The position numbers and the translations under genes are program-made. The notes under the pieces were generated by a model. That model made no database searches. It was not told where the DNA came from and worked only from the letters and a program-made list of their open reading frames with translations. A DNA stretch of 64,000 bases from Macrostomum lignano (lineage: Eukaryota): the NCBI GenBank assembly GCA_002269645.1, contig NIVC01002475.1:60826-124825 (forward strand). Reading direction: 5' to 3'. Positions 38,651 through 47,680 of the stretch are shown piece by piece. Positions within the stretch are counted from its first letter, which is position 1. Every line of letters starts with the position of its first letter.

Positions 38651-39219
38651 GGTGGCTTTATGGGGAGGAGCTGGCACTCCAGGTTCTGACTCTGAGCCTC
38701 CTTGAGTGATCCAAGGAGCATTACTAATGTGTATACATACAGGCTTTTTTAGTGCTCAAAGTGTTGAGGGCGTAACGACACCTCCTGCCTTAACTAACAT
38801 GCAAGTCAACCTCTACGAGATGAGGGCCTCACTTTGCTCCTCAATTATTGACAGCCAGCAACATCGGCATGTACAGAAAGTCAATTTTTAGAGGGCCTGC
38901 AGCTTAGCTTGGCCCGAGAGCTGTGTGCAACTCGCTCCCCTTATCAACTGGCAGAGTTGCTAAGTTTATTACCTATACATGTAGTAGCATGCTCCAGTAG
39001 TCCTGTGCATCTCTTCTCCCTGTAATTTCATTCTGAGCAGTGCTGGCCCACAGCAGAGCTCATTAGAGTTAGCCTGCTGAGCACCCGGTTTCGGGTTATG
39101 TAAGCTCATCTGTAATTTGCTCATCTGCCACTGTTGCTGTTCTGTAATGACTGCTTTGTTAGGCATGTGGAGTCTGAGAAGTGTGCTCTCATTATGCTTC
39201 CATCTGTTTTCAGGCAGAT

Positions 39220-39801
39220 TTCTAGCTGAGATTATCTTCCTTAGCTGTGAGATTCCCCGCTGAGATTATCCTCCCTAGGTGTGAGATTCCCAGTTGAGAT
39301 TATCCCCCCTAGGTGTGAGATTCCTAGCTGAGATTATCTCCCCTAGGTGTGAGATTCCTAGTTGAGATTATCTTCCTTAGGTGTGAGATTCCCAGCTGAG
39401 ATTATCTCCCCTAGGTGTGAGATTCCTAGTTGAGATTATCTTCCCTAAGTGTGGGATTCCCAGCTGAGATTATCCCCTATTTGTGAGATTCCTAGCTGAG
39501 CTTATCTTTCCTAAGTGTGATATTCCTAGCTGAGATTATCTTCCCTAAGTGTGAGATTCCTAGCTGAGATTATCTTTCCTAAGTGTGAGATTCCTAGCTG
39601 AGATTATCTTTCCTAAGTGTTAGATTCCTAGCTGAGATTATCTTTCCTAAGTGTTAGATTCCTAGCTGAGATTATCTTTCCTAAGTGTGAGATTCCTAGC
39701 TGAGATTATCTTTCCTAAGTGTGAGATTCCTAGCTGAGATTATCTTTCCTAAGTGTTAGATTCCTAGCTGAGATTATCTTTCCTAAGTGTTAGATTCCTA
39801 G
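39220..39801. repeat. 34-bp satellite (ctagctgagattatcttccctaagtgtgagattc), left arm
   Basis: Same unit resumes after the retrotransposon. Confidence 0.95.
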
Positions 39802-40510
39802 TGTTGTGTCACTACACGTGATCGAAACAGCCCCTAAGAACGCTCTGCAGTGATCGAGCCTGGAGATGGCGTCAGCCCACTGACCGGACTGACTCCGTAA
39901 CTGAGCGTGGGGTCGCGTCGAGGTAAGGTAGTCAGTCCGTCCCTGAGGTGTACAGTACCCACTTCGCACGAGGCCCAAATGAGTAATGAATGCAGGCGCA
40001 GGTCTTACTTTGATTTCCAATCTGCTCGACGATGGGCAAGGCAGCGAATTCGTTAATTTGTAGAACTGAGATTCTTGCTGTTGAAGTTTGTAGGTTCTGA
40101 AGAGTAGTCTAGTGTCAGGCGTCAACAAGCGCGCTCGCCCTGCCCACCGCCAGCAATTCTCTATTTATTTGGACTGCCTGGCGTAAGCCCTAGGGTCTCA
40201 CGCCAGACAGCATTATCAAAACCCAACTTATTGGCCAATCACCAATTGACAAGGGCTAACAAAAGGGGGAGAGAGGGGCCAGACCAGCCAATCCGGCTGG
40301 GTACGCATAAAGAAACGGGGCAGAGCATAAGAGCTGATACACAACTGGGGAGGGGGGGGGTTAGCGCAGGCAGAAATGGGGGGGTTGACACAAACAGAAT
40401 GGGGGGGGTGGCGCAGGCACGCAGCCAGGAGGGGTGGGAGTGCAGTGCCGGGCGCACTTGACCGAGAGCCAGAGATTGCTCATCGGTGCAGGTGCACCCC
40501 GGGCACAACA
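39802..40510 (-). repeat. 3' LTR (709 bp)
   Basis: Matches 46241-46950; AATAAA on minus strand at 40164-40169. Confidence 0.97.
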
Positions 40511-40525
40511 CCCTCCCCCTCCACG
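40511..40525 (-). other. Polypurine tract (cgtggagggggaggg)
   Basis: Purine run abutting the 3' LTR. Confidence 0.85.
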
Positions 40526-40608: not shown

Positions 40609-41154
40609 TTAAATATTATAAAATTCACGCGCAGCCGCAGCCAGTCGACCAGATAGAGCCCCGTCGCTTCGCTCCTCAGCAAGCCAGGCCGCCGCCTTCC
40701 GGACATCAGTCGGCTTGCCCGGGTTTCCCGCGAATGGCGCTGACGAAGCGACTAGCAGCCGGTCGGAAGGTATCGCTGCGACGCGTCGGGCATGCCATCG
40801 GCTGTTGACGACCCGGGCGGTGACTTCAAATTTCAGTCTTGGCAACGACGCTAGGTACAGGCTGAGAGTGTCTTTGGGCCAGTCGGAAGATTCGACAACT
40901 AGAATGCGACAGTTTGCAAAGTCCGACGCCACTAGCAACTGTAAGAACTGGTGCCAGGCCGAGCCACCGGGTTCGACTGGGCTACGTCTACGCTCTCGCA
41001 AACGAACCAGGAGGGGTAGATCTCGTTTCTTTGCTAGCCGAACCTGTAGCTCCATGGCTGCCATTTGTTGCTCCACACTGATTGCAGTATTCTGGACGTC
41101 CAACTCGGCTTCACCGACAGCCACTACCCTTGCCCATCCTTGCCCAAAATACAA
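40609..41154 (-). CDS. TatD-like (amidohydrolase TIM-barrel) ORF, probably catalytically inactive; 5' end uncertain
   Basis: Collinear TatD motifs: VVAVGEAELD (VVAIGExGLD), QVRLAKKRDLPLLVR (QLELAKELNLPVIIH), IPSDRLLVASSAPF (IPLDRLLxETDAPY), KPTDVRKAAAWLA, EFYNI at the C-terminus. Confidence 0.75.
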   Translation of the reverse strand: MYFGQGWARVVAVGEAELDVQNTAISVEQQMAAMELQVRLAKKRDLPLLVRLRERRRSPVEPGGSAWHQFLQLLVASDFANCRILVVESSDWPKDTLSLYLASLPRLKFEVTARVVNSRWHARRVAAIPSDRLLVASSAPFAGNPGKPTDVRKAAAWLAEERSDGALSGRLAAAAREFYNI

Positions 41155-41264
41155 TTACAACTGCATGAAAATACGAACCCGTACTGTACTCAGCAACTTG
41201 AAGGCGCGATGAGAAGGGTGAGAATTAAACGTTCCAGAGCGATTGATAGACAGATTGGTACAGA

Positions 41265-44200
41265 TTAATAGAGGATTGGGTCTCCGAATCGACGTGGTGC
41301 AACTCCTCGATTCGCACGAACAGGGCGACGATTCAATTCTTGCTCGGGAGGAGCGGCTACAAGAGGCTGATGGTGTGTGACGCGCTGTGCCCAAATGGGC
41401 TCTGGTTCCAATTCAGCGTCACTGTTCTGCTCAGAGTCAAATACCGGCATCGGGGGATCAGGAGCTTCCGGGCGGGAATATCGCTCACGTGACCTGATTC
41501 CCGCCGCTGCTTGAGTCCTCCTCTGAGCAGGGACGTGGAACCTAGAGCTGGCATCGATTTTCCTTAGGTTGTTGAAATGGACTACTCTAGGCCTTCGCGC
41601 ACCATCGTGCAGGATTCTGTAATTGACATCGGAAAATTTTTTCAGGACTTTGGCCGGGCCTTTCCAATAGCGGTGGAACTTCGGGATTTCATTCGGTTTA
41701 ATGACGGGATCGTATTCTAGAACAAAATCACCTTCATTGATCTGAGTGCCACGAGCTTGGCTGTCATAAGGCTTCTTTTGCTTCCTCTGATAGGTTCTGA
41801 GATTCTCCCTCACGGCCTCGTGTGCTTGCTGAAGGTCTTCAGCCAGTCGACGAGTGAACTTGGAGAAACTCTCTGGCACCCTCTCAGTCGGATTCTCAAT
41901 GTCGATCGGGAGCTGCATCTCCCTACCAAACAGAATGTAGTGCGGAGTGTAGCCTGTGCCTCTATGCACGCTAGAACGATAGGCTAGCAAACCGGGCGCA
42001 ATGCAGTCTTCCCAATCCTTGTCCTCCTGCTCTAACTGACACGTTAACATGTGCTTTAGAGTCCTATTAAAGCTTTCTGCTTGCCCATCCGCCATCGGAT
42101 GATACGGAGTGGTTCGACACTTGCGGATGTCTAGCAGAGAACAAAGGTTCTTCATCAATGCTGACTCAAAGTTTGATCCCTGATCAGTGACTATCTCCTG
42201 TGGACAACCGAATGATGAAATCCAGTGCGTGAAGATTGCACGGGCTACTGTCTTGGCACGCTGATTGGTTAACGGGATTGCACACGGCCATTTACTGAAT
42301 GCGTCTTGGATTGTCAAAACAAATCTCGACCCATGCTTGGACTTCGGCAAAGGACCAATGATGTCGCACATGATTCTTTGGAACGGAAATGAGCTCGGGA
42401 TGGGTTGCAGTGGTGCCCTGCTTCTTGGCGATGGTTTGCACTTTGAGCACACTAGACATGTTCGGCAGAACTCTTCAACTCTACGAGACAGACCAGGCCA
42501 CCAAAAGCGTTGCTTAAACTTTCCTTGAGTCTTCTTAACTCCGAGGTGGCATCCACTGACGCCATCATGAAGAATTTTGGCGGCTTCCTCAAACAGGGAA
42601 CTCGGTAGGAGGATTCTCTTCTGTGAGCTCTCCGGCACTGTCAGGAGCAGTAGCCCATCTTCTACGACTATTCGAGTCCTATGAGCCCAGATCTCTCTCT
42701 CGACTAAACTACTGATCGGCTCATTTTGCAGCGCTTCACCTTCCAGGAGCTGCCTTATTCGTTTTAGAGCCGGGTCAATTCTCTGAGCCTCTCTGATGCA
42801 CTTGACGCTGAGAGGTGATACTAACACAGCGTTCACCTGTTCAGGTGCTTGTGGCGAACTGTTACAGGAAGGGCACGACTCTTGGGCCCAATGCTTTCGA
42901 ACTTTACGAGACAGACTGTCCGCATTCTGATGGAAAATTCCCTTCCTGTGCGAGATCTCAAAGTCGTAACGCTGCAGCGTCTCAAGCCATCTAGCACATT
43001 GCCCCTCGACGTCCTTAAGATTTGTCAACCACGAGAGAGCGCTATGGTCTGTTCGTATCTTAAATTTCCTTCCCAGCAAATAGTACTTGTACAGCTTTAC
43101 GAAGTGAACTATCGCTAGGAGTTCTAATCTGGTAGTACAGTAGTTTCTTTCACAATCTGCCAGCGACCTGGATCCGTAGGCAATGACGCGCTCTGACCCA
43201 TCGGGTTGGCATTGTGACAAAACTGCACCGATCCCAATCTTTGAGCTGGCGTCGGTGTCCAGCAAAAACGGTCCAGCTCCCTCGGAAAAGTCTGGATAGG
43301 CCATGATCTCCGCTGATGTTAGCGATTGTTTGAGTTCGGAAAACGCCTGCTGTTGTTCTGGGCCCCAAATAAGCTGCGAGTCCTTGCGCATGAGCTTGAA
43401 CAACGCGGCTGCCTTTATTGAGAAGTCATTCACGAAATTTCTGTAGTAGGAGCAGAGGCCCAAAAATGACTGCAGTTCTTTCATATTCTTGGGTGTGGGC
43501 CAGTTTCGAATTTCTTCTGTCTTCGCAGGATCTGTCGCAATACCTTCAGACGATACGACGTGCCCTAAGAACTTGGCTTCCTTGGACAGAAAATGGCATT
43601 TCTTGGCTTTCAAGCGGATCCCAGCAGTTCGTAAGCGATCGAAAACATGCTGGAGCCGCTCAAAATGCTCTTCGTAGGACTTTGAAAAAACTATTATATC
43701 GTCAAAATATACAAGACACTCTCTCCATGTCAGACCAGCCATAACAAGGTTCATCAGCTTGACGAAAGTCGCAGGGGCATTTCTTAGCCCAAAACTCACA
43801 TATCGCCAGGCGAACTGACCTCTATTTGGAACTACGAATGCCGTCTTAAGTTGATCTTTAGGATCTAGCGGGCACTGGTGATAGCCTGAAGCCAAGTCTA
43901 GGGTTGAAAAAATAGCATTTCCTGCAAGTGCTTCTAAAGTTTCATCCATTCGCGGCGGCGGAAATGGGTCAGGATTGGTTACTTCATTTAGTCGGCGATA
44001 ATCCAGGCACAGCCTGATGGATCCGTCCTTCTTCCGCACAGGTACGACCGGGCTGACCCACGGGGATTGACACTCGTAGATCCTACCGCAGTCTATTAGC
44101 CTGTCAATTTCTTTATCGATTTCTGGCCTTATGTGCGGTGGGATGCGGCGTGGTGGTTCTCTAGTTGGCCTGGCGTCCCCGGTGTCTATGGTATGCATTG

Positions 44201-45044
44201 CCTGGTCCGTTGAACCCAGCTCGCTATCGTCCTTGGCGAAGACATCTCTGTTCTGACGGATCAACTTTATGAACGACACCTGGTGGTCTTTGGACAAGTC
44301 CGGCGAGTCCCAACTGCCCAGATGCTCTACAGGATCCCAGTCTTTGTCGAGAGAAACCCGGTTAACTTGTGCTTTGGGTTCTTGATCGTGATTTGGTTGG
44401 CTGTCATGGACGGGCGAGAACCAGCCAATCTGCTTCCCTTTTGTCAGTACTACAGGTTCTCCCGACATATTGGTGATCTTGACAGGGACGGAACCGTCAG
44501 CAGAGGGTACGACAACTGACCTAGCCAGCATCACGTGGCCTTCAGTCTGGGAGCGGGTCTCTGCCATTCCTAAGAACCGAAATTCCTTCACTCCTCTCCG
44601 ACTCAGCTTAGCTCGAATGATTTGAGACCGATTTGCAGGAACTGTTTCCGATTTCGAAATGACTATCCGGCAGAGGAGGGGTCGCTCAGAAGATATACGA
44701 AAAGGAAAAGTTCCTACTGAAGTGACGATCTGAAGGTTCGCAAAATCCAACTTGGCTGCTTGGCAACGGAAAAAATCTGCACCAAGGATGCAGTGATGCA
44801 GTATGTGTGAGACGACGACAAAGGTGTGACAAAATCTATGCGAGCCAATTGAAAACTCCCCAACGCACTCACCCAGCACATTTATGACTTCGCCATTTGC
44901 AACTTGAATGCTCCTCCCTATGTAACTTGGCTCCAACACGGCTCGATTCGAATTCCTCTTCCACGCGGCTTCACTTAATAGGGAGATACTCGAGCCGGAA
45001 TCTAGCAAACATGCCATACTACTTGTTCTGCCTTCAAATATCAC
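41265..45044 (-). CDS. pol: Gypsy Pol: protease, reverse transcriptase, RNase H, integrase (probably expressed as a Gag-Pol -1 fusion)
   Basis: LLDSGS; LCLDYRRLN, DLASGYHQ, FGLRNAP, YFDDI; LDTDAS, ELLAI, TDH; HHCC, CDIIGP, TDQGSNF, YHPMADGQAESFN, WKGP; intact 1259-codon ORF. Confidence 0.98.
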   Translation of the reverse strand: MIFEGRTSSMACLLDSGSSISLLSEAAWKRNSNRAVLEPSYIGRSIQVANGEVINVLGECVGEFSIGSHRFCHTFVVVSHILHHCILGADFFRCQAAKLDFANLQIVTSVGTFPFRISSERPLLCRIVISKSETVPANRSQIIRAKLSRRGVKEFRFLGMAETRSQTEGHVMLARSVVVPSADGSVPVKITNMSGEPVVLTKGKQIGWFSPVHDSQPNHDQEPKAQVNRVSLDKDWDPVEHLGSWDSPDLSKDHQVSFIKLIRQNRDVFAKDDSELGSTDQAMHTIDTGDARPTREPPRRIPPHIRPEIDKEIDRLIDCGRIYECQSPWVSPVVPVRKKDGSIRLCLDYRRLNEVTNPDPFPPPRMDETLEALAGNAIFSTLDLASGYHQCPLDPKDQLKTAFVVPNRGQFAWRYVSFGLRNAPATFVKLMNLVMAGLTWRECLVYFDDIIVFSKSYEEHFERLQHVFDRLRTAGIRLKAKKCHFLSKEAKFLGHVVSSEGIATDPAKTEEIRNWPTPKNMKELQSFLGLCSYYRNFVNDFSIKAAALFKLMRKDSQLIWGPEQQQAFSELKQSLTSAEIMAYPDFSEGAGPFLLDTDASSKIGIGAVLSQCQPDGSERVIAYGSRSLADCERNYCTTRLELLAIVHFVKLYKYYLLGRKFKIRTDHSALSWLTNLKDVEGQCARWLETLQRYDFEISHRKGIFHQNADSLSRKVRKHWAQESCPSCNSSPQAPEQVNAVLVSPLSVKCIREAQRIDPALKRIRQLLEGEALQNEPISSLVEREIWAHRTRIVVEDGLLLLTVPESSQKRILLPSSLFEEAAKILHDGVSGCHLGVKKTQGKFKQRFWWPGLSRRVEEFCRTCLVCSKCKPSPRSRAPLQPIPSSFPFQRIMCDIIGPLPKSKHGSRFVLTIQDAFSKWPCAIPLTNQRAKTVARAIFTHWISSFGCPQEIVTDQGSNFESALMKNLCSLLDIRKCRTTPYHPMADGQAESFNRTLKHMLTCQLEQEDKDWEDCIAPGLLAYRSSVHRGTGYTPHYILFGREMQLPIDIENPTERVPESFSKFTRRLAEDLQQAHEAVRENLRTYQRKQKKPYDSQARGTQINEGDFVLEYDPVIKPNEIPKFHRYWKGPAKVLKKFSDVNYRILHDGARRPRVVHFNNLRKIDASSRFHVPAQRRTQAAAGIRSRERYSRPEAPDPPMPVFDSEQNSDAELEPEPIWAQRVTHHQPLVAAPPEQELNRRPVRANRGVAPRRFGDPILY

Positions 45045-45103
45045 ATCAACAAAACCAAGTTCTGTACCTTGTGCGGGTTGGCTCGGTGCGCTGGGTTGGG
45101 CCT

Positions 45104-46072
45104 CTACTGCTGGTTCGGGTGGGTGCCTGGGCGGCCCTGCCTCCAGGTCCCCTGACCGTTTCCCGTCTGCTGCTGGTCTCTCTGCAGTTTAAAACACCTG
45201 GCCCGTTTGTGACCGGACCGGTTGCAGTAATTGCAAACTATAAGATTTCTGCATTGCTGGGTCGTGTGGGTGGTCTCAAGGCAGCGACCACACTGGAAAG
45301 TTCTCTGAGCTGGTGCTGCAGCCTGGGCAGGTTGGGGATTAGGGTGCTTTTGATAGCGGACTCCAGTTCCCGATCCAGCCTTCAGGACTTGCAGCTCCGC
45401 TCTCAGTTCTTTCAGCTCTTCGCGGAGTCTGACTGCCTCATCTTGCGTGTTACTTGCGGATACGTTCGCTGAGGGCCAAGGTTTCTCAGTGCTCGATTGA
45501 GCTGTGCGGAGGGATGCCATACTCTGTCTTACACGCCTACAAGCTGCGTCGAGGGTACCCGGTTCCTCCAATAGCAAGTGTTCACGAATTCTATCGGCGA
45601 TTCTGGCACCTAGCAGGAACCGGTCTCTTGCTAGCTCATCTCTCTGTTCTACCGGCAGGTTTGGGTAGGCCCGGCGGACAATTTCTCGAAGAGCGTCGGC
45701 ATAATCTTCCACAGATTCATCCTTCTTCTGGTCCCGACCCCTCAGTTCGATCTTACTGTCTTGTGGGGTGTGATGCTGATTAAACCGCTGTGAAAGGCGC
45801 TCAACAAAATCGTCAAACTCTAGATCATCTGGTAACTCAAGGTTGGCAATGGCTCGGTAAGCTGAGTTGAAGTCCATCATACTAAGTAGGTGCTGCTTCC
45901 TATCTTCCTCGGGGATTTCTGCAGCCTCACAATACGCTGTAAATTGCTGCATCCACAGAGCAAAATCCTGACTCAGCACAAACTTGGATGGTCGGGGCAC
46001 TCTTTGCCCTACGTTCAAATTATTCTGCACTCTAGCTGTAAGCGCATTGATGAGGTCGTCAACGTTGGCCAT
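45104..46072 (-). CDS. gag: Gypsy Gag with two CCHC zinc knuckles
   Basis: 322 aa; CGRCLETTHTTQQC and CNYCNRSGHKRARC; Q..DESVEDY and RDRFLLG capsid-like motifs. Confidence 0.93.
   Translation of the reverse strand: MANVDDLINALTARVQNNLNVGQRVPRPSKFVLSQDFALWMQQFTAYCEAAEIPEEDRKQHLLSMMDFNSAYRAIANLELPDDLEFDDFVERLSQRFNQHHTPQDSKIELRGRDQKKDESVEDYADALREIVRRAYPNLPVEQRDELARDRFLLGARIADRIREHLLLEEPGTLDAACRRVRQSMASLRTAQSSTEKPWPSANVSASNTQDEAVRLREELKELRAELQVLKAGSGTGVRYQKHPNPQPAQAAAPAQRTFQCGRCLETTHTTQQCRNLIVCNYCNRSGHKRARCFKLQRDQQQTGNGQGTWRQGRPGTHPNQQ
45158..45164 (-). promoter_or_regulatory. -1 ribosomal frameshift slippery site G GGA AAC
   Basis: X XXY YYZ heptamer in the gag frame; the -1 frame is open from there into pol; downstream CCTGG...CCAGG stem. 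Confidence 0.75.
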
Positions 46073-46220
46073 CGGGATTCGAAAGACAACTTCAGGAAGA
46101 AAAGACTAAGAGATTGACTGGGATAGAGAAGGAGACAGACTAACAGTGCATAGATCTAAGAGGCGCGCAAGCTGCTAACAAATAAACGTACAACCCAGGT
46201 TACAGTAAACTAAACTCCTA

Positions 46221-46239
46221 AATCCTGGTCACGGCACCA
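46221..46239 (-). other. Primer binding site complementary to the tRNA-His 3' end
   Basis: TGGTGCCGTGACCAGGATT begins 1 nt after the 5' LTR; its complement ...GTCACGGCA-CCA is the eukaryotic tRNA-His 3' end. Confidence 0.85.
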
Positions 46240-46240
46240 G

Positions 46241-46950
46241 TGTTGTGTCACTACACGTGATCGAAACAGCCCCTAAGAACGCTCTGCAGTGATCGAGCCT
46301 GGAGATGGCGTCAGCCCACTGACCGGACTGACTCCGTAACTGAGCGTGGGGTCGCGTCGAGGTAAGGTAGTCAGTCCGTCCCTGAGGTGTACAGTACCCA
46401 CTTCGCACGAGGCCCAAATGAGTAATGAATGCAGGCGCAGGTCTTACTTTGATTTCCAATCTGCTCGACGATGGGCAAGGCAGCGAATTCGTTAATTTGT
46501 AGAACTGAGATTCTTGCTGTTGAAGTTTGTAGGTTCTGAAGAGTAGTCTAGTGTCAGGCGTCAACAAGCGCGCTCGCCCTGCCCACCGCCAGCAATTCTC
46601 TATTTATTTGGACTGCCTGGCGTAAGCCCTAGGGTCTCACGCCAGACAGCATTATCAAAACCCAACTTATTGGCCAATCACCAATTGACAAGGGCTAACA
46701 AAAGGGGGAGAGAGGGGCCAGACCAGCCAATCCGGCTGGGTACGCATAAAGAAACGGGGCAGAGCATAAGAGCTGATACACAACTGGGGAGGGGGGGGGT
46801 TAGCGCAGGCAGAAATGGGGGGGTTGACACAAACAGAATGGGGGGGGGGTGGCGCAGGCACGCAGCCAGGAGGGGTGGGAGTGCAGTGCCGGGCGCACTT
46901 GACCGAGAGCCAGAGATTGCTCATCGGTGCAGGTGCACCCGGGCACAACA
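46241..46950 (-). repeat. 5' LTR (710 bp)
   Basis: By eye differs from the 3' LTR only in two homopolymer lengths. Confidence 0.97.
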
Positions 46951-47680
46951 CTAGCTGAGATTATCTTCCCTAAGTGTGAGATTCCTAGCTGAGATTATCT
47001 TTCCCAAGTGTGAGATTCCTAGCTGAGATTATCTTCCCTAAGTGTGAGATTCCTAGCTGAGATTATCTTTCCCAAGTGTGAGATTCCTAGCTGAGATTAT
47101 CTTCCCTAAGTGTGAGATTCCTAGCTGAGATTATCTTCCCTAAGTGTGAGATTCCTAGCTGAGATTATCTTTCCCAAGTGTGAGATTCCTAGCTGAGATT
47201 ATCTTCCCAAGTGTGAGATTCCTAGCTGAGATTATCTTCCCTAAGTGTGAGATTCCTAGCTGAGATTATCTTCCCTAAGTGTTAGATTCCTAGCTGAGAT
47301 TATCTTTCCTAAGTGTGAGATTCCTAGCTGAGATTATCTTCCCTAAGTGTGAGATTCCTAGCTGAGATTATCTTCCCTAAGTGTTAGATTCCTAGCTGAG
47401 ATTATCTTTCCTAAGTGTTAGATTCCTAGCTGAGATTATCTTCCCTAAGTGTGAGATTCCTAGCTGAGATTATCTTCCCTAAGTGTGAGATTCCTAGCTG
47501 AGATTATCTTCCCTAAGTGTGAGATTCCTAGCTGAGATTATCTTTCCTAAGTGTGAGATTCCTAGCTGAGATTATCTTCCCTAAGTGTTAGATTCCTAGC
47601 TGAGATTATCTTTCCTAAGTGTTAGATTCCTAGCTGAGATTATCTTCCCTAAGTGTGAGATTCCTAGCTGAGATTATCTC
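46951..47680. repeat. 34-bp satellite, right arm
   Basis: About 21 homogeneous copies. Confidence 0.96.

Follow-up and report, generated by a model that had tools for sequence, protein, structure and literature searches.

A stretch of 64,000 nucleotides of the Macrostomum lignano genome (contig NIVC01002475.1 of assembly GCA_002269645.1, positions 60,826 to 124,825; the window) was found to carry, on its minus strand, a Ty3/Gypsy retrotransposon with a 181-codon open reading frame (ORF) between pol and the 3' long terminal repeat (LTR). This frame is the 5'-truncated remnant of a longer third gene, here designated ORF3, which encodes a protein of about 560-590 aa comprising a J-domain, a helical domain and a TatD barrel. 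The J-domain and the helical domain are the conserved core of this cargo, and TatD is an add-on in two of the seven families in which ORF3 was found. On balance, the better-supported reading is that complete ORF3 is a co-chaperone made from a spliced RNA, which would recruit Hsp70 through its J-domain and be targeted by a likely catalytically dead TatD domain or by a chromodomain; the significance of the window copy is limited to marking this J-domain cargo system.

The deletion and its remnant

As the original prediction had stated, a stop-to-stop frame follows the pol stop (41265) and precedes the polypurine tract, at 40609-41154 (-). Its likeness to TatD nucleases was upheld by Pfam TatD_DNase (E 1.6e-7, 31.5 bits against a cut-off of 27), with which weak matches to solved YjjV, TatD and YcfH proteins agree. 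The match covers only positions 85-233 of the 253 in the profile, and the barrel is incomplete, its start having been deleted. The frame has no transmembrane segment (maximum 19-residue hydropathy 1.3), in line with the earlier view that it is not env.

The window element was compared with 20 stretches fetched from its own genome, where a search gave 40 matches among 47 candidates, grouped at 91-100%, 57-66% and 34-35% identity. Six close copies hold 1,121-1,215 extra bases exactly between window positions 41146 and 41137, and relative to the copy L037 the missing DNA measures 1,215 nt. The deletion took the first third of the TatD barrel together with what precedes it in ORF3: the start, the J-domain with its HPD motif, the acidic linker and the helical domain. 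About 1.2 kb has been replaced by an 8-nt filler at 41138-41145 (-), a copy of the adjacent 41128-41135. Upstream of it lies the non-coding ORF3 leader (41146-41264 (-)), and downstream the remnant proper, 175 codons and a stop at 40609-41137 (-), corresponding to the C-terminal two thirds of the degenerate barrel; codons 1-6 of the 181 are leader and filler. A spliced-out intron was rejected as the origin of the gap, as its ends are not GT..AG and a templated filler is present.

It had been proposed that a 79-codon ORF upstream, separated by a single TAA (41155-41157), supplies the missing third of TatD. With these codons added and the TAA read as X, the score fell and no more of the profile was covered; 130 of the 237 nt are pol in another frame and the remainder is leader. 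Nor is the TAA a nonsense change in a TatD gene, as it also occurs in the leader of undeleted copies, ahead of their ORF. The read-through model joining 79 and 181 codons into a TatD of about 260 was rejected on these two grounds. A TatD fold that has lost most of its metal ligands does lie between pol and the polypurine tract of Ty3/Gypsy elements, but not as a stand-alone unit of 260 codons.

The deletion is common to the window copy and five others: a DNA search across the junction returned 12 loci, six contiguous (deleted) and six split (undeleted). Four deleted copies have distinct target-site duplications (TSDs) and flanks; the flank of a fifth is that of one of the four. The lineage therefore continued inserting after the deletion, and with at least four distinct insertion sites occupied by the deleted subfamily, the element can do without ORF3 in cis.

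The remnant is likely non-functional, a judgement made because its start and barrel strands are missing and not because of selection data. It is improbable that the 181 codons are a working gene, reached by read-through, splicing or re-initiation and giving a stand-alone binding protein or a decoy. The frame is indeed open in three of the five deleted copies covering it and is broken in the remaining two by indels of 1-2 nt resembling assembly errors elsewhere; dN/dS is about 0.4, and translation from the first in-frame ATG (41064) would yield a product of 151 aa. However, this ATG lies beyond the conserved GE glutamate, so that the product would be without that residue and about 45% of the barrel; the earliest ATG past the junction, at 41137, stands in another frame, which is open for only 8 codons, and the upstream 79 codons contribute no TatD match. 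An open frame is expected anyway after a young deletion, and the variant codons accumulated since then (7 synonymous, 9 non-synonymous) give a synonymous excess that is not significant against neutrality (P=0.11) and does not differ significantly from the 48:36 of pol (Fisher P=0.41).

The element carrying the remnant is complete and, as originally described, young; its gag and pol frames are open. The 5' LTR (TG...CA, 46241-46950 (-)) and the 3' LTR (39802-40510 (-)) are 99.6% alike, with 0 mismatches and 2 gap openings, and are flanked by the 4-bp TSD CTAG (46951-46954 and 39798-39801). The primer-binding site (PBS) at 46222-46239 (-) is presumably the complement of the tRNA-His 3' end, and the polypurine tract is at 40511-40522 (-). 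The gag frame (45104-46105 (-), 333 codons), with PNMA/Retrotrans_gag similarity and zinc knuckles, overlaps an unbroken pol frame of 1307 codons (41265-45188 (-)) encoding protease, reverse transcriptase (RT), RNase H (RH) and integrase. The element was inserted into a 34-bp tandem array (39100-39800 and 46951-47500), and other minisatellites are abundant in the window.

ORF3 families and the degenerate TatD barrel

In seven Gypsy families of this genome (A-G; the window element belongs to A) ORF3 lies between pol and the 3' LTR and encodes a J-domain, an acidic linker and a helical domain. Families C-G have the same helical domain without TatD, which is appended in A and B, and family F inserts a chromodomain between the J-domain and the helical domain (Pfam Chromo E 1.4e-12; L110:7031-8014 (+)). 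The Pfam DnaJ match has E 6e-13 in L037, 8e-17 in L010 and 0.0025 in family B, and lies above the cut-off in all five further families, C-G. A class C J-domain, with PF00226 above cut-off and HPD present, was found in A (L037/L038), A2, C, D, E, F and G; L033-L036 have RPD in place of HPD. In family B HPD is replaced and the Pfam score is only 18.3 bits, yet the modelled structure of the domain is a J fold (best Z 8.9). The helical domain had no Pfam or PDB sequence match, and a fold search gave only middling helical-bundle matches (best Z 8.7, below the bar). An env gene of the errantivirus type was rejected, as the maximum 19-residue hydropathy was 1.3-1.5 in four of four ORF3 proteins, without a transmembrane anchor or an env Pfam match.

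The J-part, used to search the genome, matched 148 of 150 scored sequences, out of 241 candidates. From the resulting groups 20 representative loci were picked, of which 11 lie directly after a Gypsy pol and nine resemble host J genes. Among 18 further loci picked from an RT search as unseen families, two had a J or helical match and 16 had none. The full ORF3 region and 3' LTR are present in L037 and L038 (G000:C471 and C513), which have the same 3' flank and only the last 38 pol codons within the 10 kb fetched. In L104 (G000:C3538) two family-C elements stand in tandem, apparently with one LTR in common. Family-F ORF3 (P0034, P0036) is matched at 70% or more by about 25 contigs.

Family B (pol 54% identical, LTR pairs mostly >99%) has an ORF3 of 558 aa, unbroken in 9 of 21 copies, young ones included. 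As its breaks are mostly single-base losses, recurring at the same sites and as frequent in pol, many are probably assembly errors, and contigs of three independent runs contain no indel inside this ORF3. Each of the eight undeleted A/A2 copies examined has a stop, a frameshift or a further deletion in ORF3, and the A3 copies (L042/L046) carry an independent ORF3 deletion. In an ORF3-less sister family of B a different frame of 247 codons lies between pol and the LTR (L142:3298-4038 (-)), with no Pfam match.

The assignment of the add-on to the TatD family, anticipated by the original prediction, was borne out by profile and structure comparison. Pfam TatD (PF01026) matched A/A2 with 31.5-35.3 bits (E 1e-8 in L037, 1e-7 in L010), and the family-B barrel with 24.6 bits, below the cut-off of 27 (E 1.9e-5, or 2e-5 rounded). 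All 12 solved sequences retrieved at E<0.001 with a profile of element TatDs alone belong to the TatD family, and HHalign to canonical TatDs gave 99.3%. The family-B model has pLDDT 88 and a template-modelling (TM) score of about 0.80 to TatD structures. The element domain is not visibly closer to the two canonical TatD genes of the host than to bacterial TatDs. These host genes (L178 and L179; G000:C280 and C584), each on 3-4 contigs, have intact LHC/HSF-type and ETD motifs.

The site was judged against the residues named in the accessible text of PMC10085689. The GE glutamate is kept in all element TatDs, while HxH reads H-x-F in family A and K-x-Y in family B, the GxH histidine is Arg or Lys, the first barrel histidine Arg or Gln, and the ETD aspartate Ser or Ala. 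Of the seven canonical residues (HxH, GxH, GE, the two barrel histidines and the ETD aspartate) family A keeps two and family B one, so that the motif of an active nuclease is reduced to the glutamate in all copies and the first histidine in undeleted family-A copies. For the window frame, the retained glutamate and the change of the first barrel histidine to Arg and of the ETD aspartate to Ser had been read correctly. The second barrel histidine is replaced as claimed, but not simply lost, since an invariant Glu stands at or beside its position in six of six aligned element sequences. The absence of HxH is true of the window copy but an effect of the deletion, undeleted family-A copies having D-A-H-A-F there.

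From this pattern of residues the element TatD is likely nuclease-dead and most likely a binding-only domain. An unlikely alternative is a re-wired nuclease using acidic ligands (the GE glutamate, the Glu at the second barrel histidine and an N-terminal Asp), which would trim cDNA ends or clear RNA:DNA hybrids. In its favour, the six element sequences share two unvarying glutamates located on or beside ligand positions, and the barrel is under purifying selection; moreover, in human TATDN1 the D222A and most histidine mutants were still active, and all active-site mutants partly so, according to the portion of PMC10085689 available. Against it stand the two (A) or one (B) of seven site residues kept and the Arg or Lys at two of the histidines. 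Roles first suggested for the TatD cargo, a shield of cDNA or R-loops or a decoy against host nucleases, are retained as hypothetical rivals.

Origin, selection, expression and proposed function

An RT tree of 30 rows groups the TatD families A and B with ORF3-less B' rows in a single supported clade (97/98); the J-only families fall outside it on an open backbone. TatD was probably added once to an existing J-ORF3, on an RT tree without a rooted test. The ORF3-less L147 stands next to A/B, at a node (84/93) drawn open in this tree, which holds no reference RTs; in the J-domain tree one of 17 branches was supported. Between A and A2 (window against L039/L040) dS is 1.6-1.9 for ORF3 and only 0.21 for RT-RH. 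Since the former, at about 1.7, is far above the latter, the modules appear to have been exchanged by recombination, and A2 is likely a mosaic element.

ORF3, including the A/A2 TatD barrel, is under purifying selection. By a simple counting method, in which high dS is near saturation, dN/dS was 0.10-0.29 for the J and helical parts when diverged subfamilies within families C, E and G were compared (five comparisons), and 0.14 for the A/A2 TatD barrel. Between close copies it was 0.34 for the whole family-B ORF3 (P 1e-4) and 0.40 in family D. The earlier claim of a frame maintained by selection is sound for the barrel between subfamilies; it lacks support for the window copy, in which the open frame is not distinguishable from neutrality. 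Repeated loss and the many broken copies would fit a passive captured host sequence of no benefit to the element, yet this is very improbable given dN/dS of 0.10-0.29 at dS >1 in four lineages, the retention of HPD and domain order across families with pol only 40-55% identical, and the existence of related proteins outside this assembly (P0009, with a best match here of 51%, and P0036, with 76%).

Translation of ORF3 from a spliced sub-genomic RNA is predicted from motifs at both ends of the putative intron. A YAG lies 0-17 nt ahead of the ORF3 ATG in seven of seven families, directly adjacent in three, and a GTAAG/GTGAG donor follows a TATA-like or AATAAA box in all ten ORF3-family LTRs scanned. 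In the window the predicted donor, AAA/GTAAGA at 46442-46450 (-), about 160 nt downstream of a TATA-like box, would start the intron at 46447. A second AG is found ahead of the J-domain in both A and A2, in A2 with no ATG in its frame, and the LTR exon predicted for each of the four A-type LTRs has A as its last base, so that splicing would create the start codon. Contigs from 4 of 24 runs, only guessed to be RNA and covering family B and not the window's family, contained no joint into ORF3, which says little, as contigs drop rare forms. In one of them (run X14) 103 nt of the family-B 5' leader are skipped (L048:1550-1654), weakly, with a side of 21 nt. Family-F ORF3 is a separate gene model of 328 aa in the NCBI annotation. 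Heat-shock elements, perfect or with one mismatch, were absent from nine of nine ORF3-family LTRs scanned.

The J-domain would bring host Hsp70 to complexes bound to nucleic acid or chromatin, with TatD (nucleic acid) and the chromodomain (chromatin) acting as swappable targeting modules. HPD is needed for stimulation of Hsp70, which J-proteins direct to clients, and J-domains are also encoded by polyomaviruses, according to the part of PMC13254874 available. Stimulation by ORF3 may thus be expected from HPD in A, A2, C, D, E, F and G, and would be lost in B. Clients bound to chromatin or nucleic acid are suggested because the add-ons are a chromatin-reader and a nucleic-acid-binding fold. The best guess at a client, though held at rather less than even, is the host silencing machinery on element RNA or chromatin; it is preferred because of the add-on folds and because J-protein and Hsp70 are used in Argonaute loading, a J-protein linking Hsp70 to an Argonaute (PMC11194074, as far as its text was available). 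A product acting in trans fits the optional status of ORF3 in cis.

The element's own capsid or integration complex is ranked second and is a doubtful candidate. Here the J-domain would serve the element's cycle, with Hsp70 acting in Gag particle assembly or uncoating or in disassembly of the integration complex, and TatD or the chromodomain holding cDNA or selecting target chromatin. J-proteins do disassemble native complexes (PMC13254874, in part), LTR elements are known to carry chromodomains as accessory domains (PMC6338049, in part) and the TatD fold engages nucleic acid (PMC10085689, in part). However, judged by LTR identities of 99.3-100%, copies with the deletion and relatives without ORF3 have moved recently, so that such a step would be optional or supplied in trans. 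By analogy with the J-domains of viral T-antigens, a chaperone-based suppressor of silencing encoded by a retrotransposon, with its own J-domain gene, env-style splicing, interchangeable modules and Hsp70 turned against silencing, can be put forward tentatively.

Several observations weigh against the Hsp70-recruiting, spliced ORF3 proposed here. The main difficulty is the loss of HPD in family B, which alone of the TatD families has an unbroken ORF3 here; a canonical J-domain is thus joined to TatD in family A only, whose eight undeleted copies are all broken in the assembly. ORF3 was lost or gutted at least three times (the window subfamily; A3, L042/L046; ORF3-less B', L142/L144) and is absent from seven RT-related elements seen from LTR to LTR among the 16 loci without a match, and the donor motif is also present in two of three ORF3-less LTRs. 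Within family B, constraint on the TatD part by itself does not reach significance (6.5 synonymous against 8.5 non-synonymous, P=0.19), and the remnant's dN/dS of 0.36-0.49 is indistinguishable from pol or from neutral. The fold match is partly circular, as 7 of the 12 alignment rows of the TatD model are true TatDs.

Animal transposons are known to encode few accessory or counter-silencing proteins. These families offer a natural series, from J and helical domains alone through forms with a chromodomain, with pseudo-TatD or without HPD to deleted and absent ORF3. In their host, probably a tractable model flatworm in which RNA interference and transgenesis are available, co-option of Hsp70 by a retroelement, as by polyomaviruses, is directly testable.

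Distribution and comparison with known systems

Public proteins 97-100% identical to the family-B and family-F proteins are labelled M. lignano in UniRef and NCBI. Some gene models of this species named 'J domain-containing protein' are transposon ORFs; in P0007, P0008, P0010 and P0035, so named or called 'ribonuclease H', unrelated sequence is joined to pieces of ORF3 or pol, so that these models are probable annotation artefacts. With the 181-aa query a protein search returned two canonical TatD-family proteins only. The query P0005 found none among 8000 candidates; against 1.84 billion representatives it had 12 matches, namely three same-species gene models, the relative P0009, six generic TatDs and two generic J proteins. 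The helical-domain profile had three matches, two of them labelled M. lignano. The ESM Atlas gave nothing usable for P0005 and, for family E, nothing beyond generic J clusters (0.79), none of 598 pattern matches in a metagenome scan was confirmed, and the viral fold library held one generic TatD-like protein. Such protein searches, which are weak for eukaryotic transposon ORFs, gave no evidence for the J-domain ORF3 system in other animal groups, and restriction to one genus does not follow from them. The system exists beyond this assembly, because P0009 and P0036 match here no better than stated above.

The M. lignano LTR survey (PMC12801592) names no extra ORF, DnaJ or TatD in its elements in the text available, nor TatD in its supplements; of the 13 DnaJ occurrences in its expression table, the two rows displayed are host transcript clusters. 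By eye, the ORF3-less L147 matches the Gmr1/Osvaldo family Mlig-id38 of that survey in LTR length and PBS. A literature search found no description of J-domain or TatD cargo, which the earlier M. lignano classification, Repbase or bioRxiv supplements might mention.

Chromodomains are found on the integrase of chromoviruses. Family F resembles these in being a Ty3/Gypsy element with a chromodomain (compare the section of PMC6338049 available), which here lies inside a separate J-domain ORF3 and not on integrase. TatD, YcfH, YjjV and TATDN1-3 are resembled in the PF01026 profile match, the predicted barrel (TM score 0.8) and the GE glutamate, and family A also shares a Group II-like D-x-H-x start (PMC10085689, in part). 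The element domain differs in that the second HxH histidine, the GxH histidine, the first barrel histidine and the ETD aspartate are replaced, and in being part of a multidomain transposon protein, only 15-21% identical to solved TatDs. Like polyomavirus T-antigens and class C J-proteins, ORF3 places an N-terminal HPD J-domain on the accessory protein of a mobile element, with modules after it (PMC13254874, in part); unlike T-antigen, it has no helicase or LxCxE seen and is carried by an LTR retrotransposon, and family B, unlike canonical class C, is a type-IV (HPD-less) J-protein.

Another likeness is to the bdelloid rotifer LTR elements Juno and Vesta, whose ORF3, a DEDDy exonuclease or GDSL esterase in the excerpt of PMC5408684 available, is also enzyme-like and not env, lies between pol and the 3' LTR, is family-specific and was gained and lost repeatedly; rotifer LTR-element ORF3s are typically expressed from spliced messages (PMC5408684). 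Theirs have intact catalytic residues and no J-domain (DnaJ does not occur in that text), whereas here a TIM-barrel TatD with most ligands replaced is fused behind a J-domain and a helical domain. Extra ORF3 cargo is thus of a known kind, and the J-domain cargo system is apparently undescribed.

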